Source: Candidatus Nomurabacteria bacterium RIFCSPHIGHO2_12_FULL_42_19
GTDB taxonomy: Bacteria; Patescibacteriota; Minisyncoccia; Phycocordibacterales; UBA9973
Reading direction: 5' to 3'
NCBI GenBank assembly: GCA_001786955.1
Contig: MFUM01000004.1
Span: 4,457 to 68,456 of the forward strand
Length of the DNA stretch: 64,000 bases
This document shows, piece by piece, positions 62,477 to 62,563 of the stretch. Position 1 is the first letter of the stretch. Each line of letters opens with the position of its first letter. The position numbers and the translations under genes are program-made. The notes beneath the pieces were generated by a model. It ran no database searches and had not been told where the DNA came from. It saw nothing but the letters and a program-made list of their open reading frames with translations.

Positions 62477-62563
62477 CGGATGAGGTGGGATTCGAACCCA
62501 CGGTCCTTTTAAGGGGACGGCGGTTTAGTAAACCGCTACCTTAAACCACTCGGTCACTCATCC
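62477..62563 (-). tRNA. tRNA-Ser-like type II tRNA with apparent anticodon ACT (unusual A34)
   Basis: Acceptor GGATGAG/CTCATCC, G73, anticodon stem gcggt/accgc with loop ttACTaa, long variable arm, T-arm tgggttcgaatccca. Confidence 0.6.

Follow-up and report, generated by a model that had tools for sequence, protein, structure and literature searches.

How can a bacterial serine tRNA gene carry adenosine at the wobble position of a codon box that serine shares with arginine? The question is raised by a 64,000-nucleotide stretch of the Candidatus Nomurabacteria bacterium RIFCSPHIGHO2_12_FULL_42_19 genome (assembly GCA_001786955.1, contig MFUM01000004.1, positions 4,457 to 68,456; hereafter the window), which holds at 62477..62563 on the minus strand a tRNA-Ser(ACU) gene, here called the ACT gene. 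According to a 2021 review, genes for tRNAs with a wobble A (ANN) are universally missing from split codon boxes, phages included (PMC8007984), and a 2024 experimental paper states that natural A34 tRNAs barely exist, and hence studies them by means of engineered molecules (PMC11066159). We find that the ACT gene is real, intact, conserved and under structural selection, with serine identity elements, and that it is a serine isoacceptor of an anticodon class thought nonexistent. As a group, natural A34 serine tRNAs appear to be a common but overlooked departure from the rule that split boxes hold no ANN anticodons. Our preferred reading of their function, to which we assign a probability of roughly 0.6, is that of a serine-charged elongator tRNA that reads AGU by Watson-Crick pairing with an unmodified A34, and little or no AGC, AGA or AGG.

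The gene is of type II and measures 87 nt up to discriminator G73, with CCA unencoded. ARAGORN calls it as tRNA-Ser(act) at 62475-62563 on the minus strand, with four tRNA genes in total within the window, and the Rfam model RF00005 matches 62477-62563 on the same strand over its full length (1-71), scoring 56.2 bits against a gathering score of 29, with all pairs canonical. On the minus strand, the sequence of the gene runs GGATGAG-TG-ACC-GAGTGGTTTAAG-GGT-A-GCGGT-TTACTAA-ACCGC-C-GTCC-CCTTAAAA-GGAC-C-GTGGG-TTCGAAT-CCCAC-CTCATCC-G. This gives an acceptor stem GGATGAG/CTCATCC, a D stem ACC/GGT, an 18-nt variable region with the stem GTCC/GGAC, and a T arm GTGGG-TTCGAAT-CCCAC; the invariant bases T8, A14, G18 and G19 and the T-loop GTTCGAATC are all kept. 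The anticodon stem GCGGT/ACCGC closes the 7-nt loop TTACTAA (U32-U33-A34-C35-U36-A37-A38), in which the anticodon ACT occupies 62527..62529 (plus strand AGT), A34 being the plus-strand T at 62529. Other registers, such as a CTA or TTA suppressor anticodon or a 5-nt or 9-nt loop, were rejected, as ARAGORN and the Rfam model both give a 7-nt loop with ACT at positions 34-36. A sequence-only reading of the window had described a type-II tRNA-Ser with an apparent ACU anticodon, G73, a long variable arm and a good T arm next to a tRNA-Ser(GCT). Its coordinates and description proved correct, with the strand now known to be minus; both programs put the anticodon at ACT and not at GCT or CTA, and the neighbouring tRNA-Ser(GCT) is a real gene according to both.

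Identity of E. coli tRNA-Ser lies in G73, G1-C72, G2-C71, A3-U70 and C11-G24, and recognition by seryl-tRNA synthetase (SerRS) ignores the anticodon, so that a tRNA-Ser with any anticodon can be charged. The window gene holds C11-G24 besides G73 and the expected acceptor pairs. Because these serine identity elements are present and SerRS is blind to the anticodon, the tRNA would be expected to carry serine. Its anticodon, ACU, is complementary to the serine codon AGU. The gene does not resemble tRNA-Sec, having a 7/5 layout of acceptor and T stems and an ACT anticodon instead of an 8/5 or 9/4 layout and UCA.

The wobble A itself is reproducible. Using exact look-up of the flanking proteins, we collected twelve contigs of groundwater metagenomes (JGI, ENA, Logan and NCBI assemblies), including MFUF01000012.1 (GCA_001785625.1). 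Nine of the twelve span the tRNA and all nine read ACT, so that the independent assemblies show A, and none G, at the position that the sequence-only reading had singled out. Seven are identical to the window gene, L008 has one D-loop change, and L011 has four changes, two of which turn the T stem GTGGG/CCCAC into GTGAG/CTCAC, a compensated pair. The agreement of nine independent contigs on ACT rules out a sequencing or assembly artefact, and the compensated pair in L011 shows that structure is under purifying selection within the lineage.

We then scanned genomes with a generic type-II tRNA pattern (T33-ACT-R37-A38, with a D loop like that of tRNA-Ser and a standard T loop), which matches once in the window and in 0 of 100 shuffles. 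A collection with one genome per species gave at least 119 ACT loci, and ARAGORN calls all those listed tRNA-Ser(act). Among the matches listed, and going by their record titles, about 64 are from the Candidate Phyla Radiation (CPR)/Patescibacteria (Nomura-, Magasanik-, Kaiser-, Zambryski- and Taylor-bacteria, Paceibacteria and Saccharibacteria), 15 from Planctomycetota, 7-8 from Polynucleobacter or Burkholderiales, cultured isolates included, about 11 from metagenome-assembled genomes (MAGs) labelled Gammaproteobacteria, and three from tRNA arrays of Bacteroidota or Actinomycetota MAGs. One of the genome loci, L028 (MFUG01000017.1, Candidatus Nomurabacteria RIFCSPHIGHO2_02_FULL_42_19), encodes a ComF-adjacent protein only 37% identical to that of the window, and is therefore a relative of a different species. 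In IMG/VR, the same scan gave at least 120 viral contigs, all those listed being called Ser(act) and most lying within tRNA arrays of up to 27 genes; proteins of two ACT viral contigs strongly match the PHROG families phrog_1221 (210-216 bits) and phrog_1392.

An alignment of 79 diverse bacterial and viral ACT copies, at most 96% identical to one another, shows selection on the fold. Cloverleaf pairing is standard in 99.0% of 1885 cells, compared to 74% in shuffled columns and at most 54% with the partners slid. Two-sided changes occur at 20 of 24 pairs, with a covariation score of 0.685 against 0.19, and the variable stem is paired in 97.4% of cells, with all 4 pairs covarying. The serine identity pairs are similarly kept: G1-C72 and G2-C71 in 75/79 copies each, A3-U70 in 72/79 and C11-G24 in 79/79. 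Invariance of the anticodon loop in this sample is no evidence, because the search pattern fixed the loop.

The body of these tRNAs sets them apart from the GCT genes beside which they often lie. Among the genome matches listed, the anticodon arm GCGGT/ACCGC occurs in 91 of 128 ACT genes and the compensated GCAGT/ACTGC in 22 more (113/128), and the GCT neighbours of ACT genes have CCTCT, CAGCT or CATCT anticodon stems. Mean identity among ACT genes is 0.77, as against 0.68 with TGA genes and 0.61 with GCT genes, and the nearest neighbour of each ACT gene is another ACT gene. At loci with all three genes (L131, L125 and L077), ACT and TGA share the D arm and nearly the entire anticodon stem; the best annotated blastn relatives of the ACT gene are phage tRNA-Ser(TGA) genes. 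The ACT family is thus a UCN-type serine tRNA body bearing an AGY-box anticodon. The arms, the identity values and the TGA-like backbone indicate that the ACT gene is no mutated copy of the adjacent GCT gene, and a recent duplication of that gene was likewise rejected (differing arms, identity about 0.63).

These results bear on the more trivial explanations, namely that sequencing or assembly went wrong, that a GCU gene recently mutated from G to A, or that the gene is a pseudogene in decay; the latter two had been raised from the sequence alone. ACT and GCT are only one transition apart, and A34 in a split codon box has been described as universally absent (PMC8007984), but we consider all three practically out of the question. 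Nine independent assemblies are concordant, identity to GCT genes is about 61-63% with distinct anticodon and D arms, and more than 230 further examples recur widely with strong compensatory covariation and zero broken pairs. The window gene itself has unbroken stems and all its invariant bases, a compensated allele within its species, and family-wide covariation behind it, none of which fits a pseudogene.

What, then, would the tRNA decode? In the AGU-specific reading, unmodified A34 would pair Watson-Crick with the U of the serine codon AGU, and the tRNA would read little or no AGC, AGA or AGG. In this genome the divergent tRNA-Ser(GCU) would cover AGC, plus AGU by wobble, and in phage arrays ACU would stand in for the GCU gene, supplementing the GCU tRNA of the host. 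The family would be an old one on a UCN-type body, retained in CPR/Patescibacteria clades, Planctomycetota, some Burkholderiales and many uncultured phages. Published specificity data are in line with this picture. The loop motif recognised by the deaminase TadA is U33-A34-C35-G36, in which G at position 36 is strictly preferred (PMC10586758); the ACT gene has U33-A34-C35-U36 instead. In E. coli, an engineered ACU tRNA reassigned AGU at 9.4% and AGG at 0.36%, with AGC and AGA below detection and no inosine detected (Schmitt, Tittle and Fisk 2024; PMC11066159). Because TadA needs G36 and the engineered ACU tRNA carried no inosine, an unmodified, AGU-specific A34 is the best supported state. We infer that the ACT tRNA is expressed, charged by SerRS, left undeaminated at A34 and restricted to AGU. 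The unusual decoding strategy suggested by the sequence-only reading therefore stands in part: the gene encodes a natural A34 tRNA in a split box, most likely an AGU reader, but the genetic code is unchanged. The accompanying idea of a tadA-like deaminase of altered specificity finds no support in the published specificity data, given U36 in place of the required G36. The 64-kb window has no CDA-type deaminase motif, which says little on the whole genome.

In metagenome loci linked to ComF (L335, L342, L352, L353, L357, L397 and L400), Arg(GCG) was called 7 times and Arg(ACG) once. CPR-like ComF-linked lineages may do without TadA-dependent inosine decoding.

Phage arrays provide the best computational case for a role of the ACT form in translation. 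A scan of IMG/VR restricted to the family anticodon arm gives complete, comparable counts for each base at position 34: A in 34 viral contigs, G in 44, C in 3 and T in 1. Ser(act) is called in 0 of the 48 non-A34 viral loci, and Ser(gct) appears as a single call among the matches listed in the first ACT viral scan (at least 120 loci). GCT and ACT in phage arrays are accordingly alternative states of one AGY-decoder gene, and it is this alternation that speaks for use of the ACT form. Among the matches listed, ACT phage arrays hold an excess of tRNAs for codons that end in A or U (Thr-UGU, Gln-UUG, Lys-UUU, Ile-UAU and others), and Arg(ACG) is present in 2 of 135 A34-Ser viral loci (L132-L251, L306-L320) compared to 11 of 48 arm-matched non-A34 loci (L258-L305; Fisher p = 8e-6). 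This depletion is compatible with phages living where TadA-dependent decoding is unimportant, and other explanations are possible. In cultured phages, whole-tRNA blastn gave only TGA or GCT genes among the hits checked. A composite megablast of 50,697 GenBank phage records found no exact anticodon-spanning 28-mer of 51 ACT variants, a search that diverged ACT genes could escape; the lack of such 28-mers may explain why isolate-based surveys are silent on ACT.

Several observations weigh against an AGU-specific decoder, or limit its reach. The AGU and AGC codons, whose usage the sequence-only reading had pointed to as informative, are found 108 times (AGT) and 187 times (AGC) in the window, though other two-fold boxes favour U-ending codons, so the ACT tRNA is unmatched to codon preference here. 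Arm-matched phage contigs use AGT at 17-19 per 1000 codons with A34 versus 11 otherwise, but the excess is not significant after correction for general U-ending bias (p = 0.24-0.43). The E. coli data on ACU rest on an archaeal tRNA body charged with tyrosine, and phage arrays with ACU only would serve AGC poorly if ACU reads just AGU. Finally, among 13 ComF-linked metagenome loci with Ser(GCT), the usual neighbour is Ser(TGA) (7 loci) and Ser(ACT) is found in 1 (L328), which indicates that the ACT gene is confined to particular clades and is not a feature of all CPR bacteria. These ComF loci were chosen regardless of anticodon by a generic phosphoribosyltransferase motif, and 15 of 80 had any Ser tRNA, so the sample gives no prevalence figure. 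AGT usage also differs between bacterial ACT loci and ComF loci that lack ACT (p = 9e-7), but taxonomy and GC content confound this comparison, and it carries little weight.

The genetic code is standard, with AGA and AGG encoding Arg. Across 106 alignments that pair window proteins with homologs from other loci, AGA aligns with R in 36%, K in 19% and S in 5% of cases, and AGG with R in 37%, K in 21% and S in 4%, a pattern equal to that of CGN codons; AGT and AGC align with Ser, TCN codons included. A reassignment of AGA to Ser, as an ICU anticodon would imply, was rejected on the same alignments, in which AGA and AGG pair with Arg or Lys.

If A34 were instead converted to inosine by TadA or by a relative of relaxed specificity, the tRNA would be a full AGY decoder (weakly also of AGA), able to replace tRNA-Ser(GCU). 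Its loop does agree with that of tRNA-Arg(ACG) at U33, A34, C35, A37 and A38, and ACT phage arrays without GCT would be easier to explain if one tRNA read both AGY codons. We nevertheless judge deamination quite improbable, since the U at position 36 conflicts with the strict preference of TadA for G36 (PMC10586758) and an ACU tRNA expressed in E. coli escaped modification by TadA (PMC11066159). An inosine at position 34 would, besides, pair with AGA, which at 10.5 per 1000 is a frequent Arg codon here and aligns with Arg, not Ser. Moreover, Arg(ACG), which marks decoding that depends on TadA, is depleted in the listed A34-Ser phage arrays, as described above, and is exceeded 7 to 1 by Arg(GCG) in CPR-like ComF loci. 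The mutually exclusive G34 and A34 states of one arm in phage contigs, together with the frequency of the ACT gene in phage tRNA arrays, would also suit an escape or backup variant that evades an anticodon nuclease or toxin directed against tRNA-Ser(GCU), born of an arms race between phage and host or toxin and antitoxin. Phage tRNAs reportedly carry anticodon-loop changes to evade host tRNases, a hypothesis put forward in print. However, no nuclease that targets specifically the GCU anticodon is known to us, and we found none adjoining the ACT gene. Stable housekeeping contexts in CPR and Planctomycetota also speak against escape, and in CPR genomes ACT coexists with a GCT gene on another backbone, which looks more like long-term decoding use; on balance, we doubt this explanation strongly.

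A related and broader idea is that the phage G34/A34 toggle is adaptive in conflict, either as nuclease escape or through a new modification or relaxed deamination that tunes AGY reading. We hold this to be speculative and unlikely; if either version were true, AGU and AGC would be decoded by separate, separately controllable tRNAs in CPR bacteria. The anticodon would be irrelevant altogether if the molecule were a regulatory tRNA, or a non-proteinogenic donor of serine for aminoacyl transfer in cell-wall, lipid or natural-product synthesis. Such a role would sit well with an anticodon that SerRS does not read and with AGU not being favoured in this genome, yet we consider it very improbable. 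The loop T33-A34-C35-T36-A37-A38 is found, in a sample selected for ACT, on arms that vary by compensated changes, and the same phage arm otherwise carries almost only GCT, so that the anticodon stays in the AGY box, as for a decoder. The ACT gene is also a regular member of translation-type phage tRNA arrays, and no Fem/MprF-type transferase is linked to it.

Comparison with known tRNAs further defines the ACT gene. The standard AGY decoder, tRNA-Ser(GCU), resembles it in being of type II, in G73, in the long variable arm and in the AGU/AGC box, and its loop TTGCTAA differs from TTACTAA only at position 34, where a wobble G reads C and U and the ACT gene has A. In contrast, the anticodon and D arms of CPR tRNA-Ser(GCU) are unrelated to those of the ACT gene (about 61-63% identity), and only in phage arrays do the two share a backbone. 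The UCN decoder tRNA-Ser(UGA) has the closest backbone, with the D arm and anticodon stem identical or nearly so where the two genes are co-located, but its loop CTTGAAA differs from TTACTAA in all three anticodon bases and serves another codon box. The one widespread bacterial A34 tRNA is tRNA-Arg(ACG), modified by TadA to ICG, which shares the five loop bases named above; unlike the ACT gene with its U36, it has G36 and a type-I body, and it serves a four-codon box where inosine reading U, C and A is harmless (PMC10586758, PMC8007984). Mycoplasma tRNA-Thr(AGU) and the Leu(AAG) and Thr(AGU) of Leuconostocaceae/Oenococcus keep, or can keep, an unmodified A34 (PMC11066159, PMC8007984). These natural A34 tRNAs read four-codon boxes, in which loose reading is costless, whereas ACU falls in a box split with arginine and in a class listed as universally missing (PMC8007984). 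The best functional model for the natural ACT gene is the engineered M. jannaschii ACU tRNA in E. coli, which has the same anticodon but an artificial type-I archaeal body, is charged with tyrosine and competes with native tRNAs (PMC11066159).

In our full-text literature search, no account of a natural tRNA-Ser(ACU) from bacteria or phages turned up. Such genes surely sit in automated annotations, where they appear to have gone unrecognised, and pipelines or curators may throw them out as errors or pseudogenes. The ACT gene nonetheless recurs in more than 100 bacterial species of several phyla, including cultured Polynucleobacter, and in at least 120 uncultured viral contigs. If its proposed function is correct, it would provide a natural system for decoding with unmodified A34 in a box shared by two amino acids. 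The "prohibited anticodon" rule would then partly reflect the organisms sampled, cultured phages being without exact 28-mer seeds, and the ACT gene would be a marker trait linking certain CPR clades with phage tRNA sets.

In the window, the ACT gene is paired with the divergent tRNA-Ser(GCU) at 62801..62890 on the plus strand (ARAGORN; Rfam 45.4 bits, with one U10-U25 mismatch in the D stem). This GCT tRNA was lost to Rfam filters in the whole-window gathering search and recovered when a short stretch was searched. Among the matches listed from the at least 119 genome loci, a GCT gene is present in the same locus in 66 and divergent in 39 of those, and the ACT-GCT pair is a conserved unit in many CPR genomes. 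The spacer between the two genes measures 62-105 nt in close relatives and contains two conserved extended -10-like motifs. One of these, TGCTATACT at 62587..62595 on the minus strand, lies 23 nt upstream of the 5' end of the ACT tRNA and is its likely promoter; the motif GAGTATAGCA / GAGTATAACA (plus strand) is kept at the corresponding position where short spacers separate ACT from GCT in L028, L043, L078, L127, L024, L082 and L026. The other, TGCTAGAGT at 62622..62630 on the plus strand, faces the GCT gene and is kept as TGCTAAAGT / TGTTAGAGT in the spacers of relatives. Together, the two elements probably form a compact bidirectional promoter region. A simple sigma-70 scan found no tRNA promoters, missing the 62587-62595 element because it has no good -35, and the promoter assignment follows from motif conservation alone. 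About 50 nt downstream of the tRNA 3' end, a hairpin GCGAAGGCGACCTTCGC with a T-rich tail (62407..62423, minus strand) matches the terminator consensus and is a putative terminator.

The wider surroundings are those of housekeeping genes. Among the genome matches listed, a ComF-like gene is near the ACT gene in 27 loci and PilM in 18. In Planctomycetota, ACT has a TlpA-like thioredoxin protein on one side and MoaE/MoaD on the other, the flanks being conserved in 9-11 of 18 loci, and in Polynucleobacter one ACT copy adjoins lipA/lipB. Such surroundings in CPR, Planctomycetota and Polynucleobacter indicate that ACT genes are native to chromosomes. Directly downstream of the ACT tRNA in the window is an 80-aa GIY-YIG open reading frame (62149-62391, minus strand; Pfam 4e-12) with its own promoter-like site. 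We rejected this nuclease gene as a functional partner of the ACT tRNA; its homologs are confined to 3 further ACT loci (L042 has two copies), which makes it a probable mobile or selfish gene.

The ACT-GCT spacer of the window has further features. The palindrome TTACGTAA occurs twice (62633-62640 and 62645-62652) after the promoter-like element of the GCT gene and before the ancestral start of the tRNA, and similar ATTACGTA repeats are found in the spacers of L078 and L049; these repeats could be a regulator binding site. Right before tRNA-Ser(GCT), an insert of 120 nt (62678-62797) lies between the two copies of a 15-nt direct repeat, AAAGGAGCCGTGTCT (62663-62677 and 62798-62812). The first copy of the repeat includes a duplicated 12-nt tRNA 5' fragment, at the place where the tRNA of relatives starts. 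The insert is hairpin-rich (minimum free energy -38.7 kcal/mol), has no Rfam match and is found in same-species contigs only; it resembles the scar that an insertion after tRNA position 12 would leave. Long ACT-GCT spacers elsewhere also hold orphan serine-tRNA 5' fragments, GGAGACGTGTCAGAGG in L084 (Saccharibacteria) and the reverse complement of GGAGGATTGGCCGAGTGG in L117 and L124, and insertions into the 5' part of these serine tRNA genes with fragment duplication seem to recur.

Among cultured bacteria, Polynucleobacter sp. JS-Safj-400b-B2 has four Ser(ACT) copies despite a small genome (L019, L110, L112 and L130). Three of the copies adjoin Gly(CCC), with or without Thr(CGT), and one of these three is the copy beside lipA/lipB. 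The Polynucleobacter isolates 31A-FELB and 71A-WALBACH are further cultured carriers. ACT genes are also found in MAGs labelled Gammaproteobacteria, archaeon, Burkholderiales or Udaeobacter (L055-L061, L090, L093, L101, L102, L115, L125, L092, L122, L128 and L089). Most of these loci also hold GCT; in L128 the two genes diverge as in CPR, across a CPR-like spacer. These MAGs may carry wrong bin labels.

Two other unusual anticodons accompany the family. In the viral contigs L165 (4123-4199) and L184 (4621-4697), a well-formed tRNA with the loop TTAAAAG (anticodon AAA, Phe box) and an encoded CCA is another A34 tRNA of a split box; a third Phe(aaa) call, in the viral L219, is doubtful. A tRNA-Ile(TAT) gene, with an anticodon listed as missing in prokaryotes (PMC8007984), accompanies the Ser pair at a distance of 3-6 kb in 12 CPR loci (L024, L038, L043, L048, L056, L060, L062, L068, L078, L082, L091 and L097). 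Among the matches listed from viral loci, Ile(TAT) was called 40 times compared to 17 for Ile(GAT), which suggests that lineages bearing Ile(TAT) read AUA without the TilS/lysidine route.

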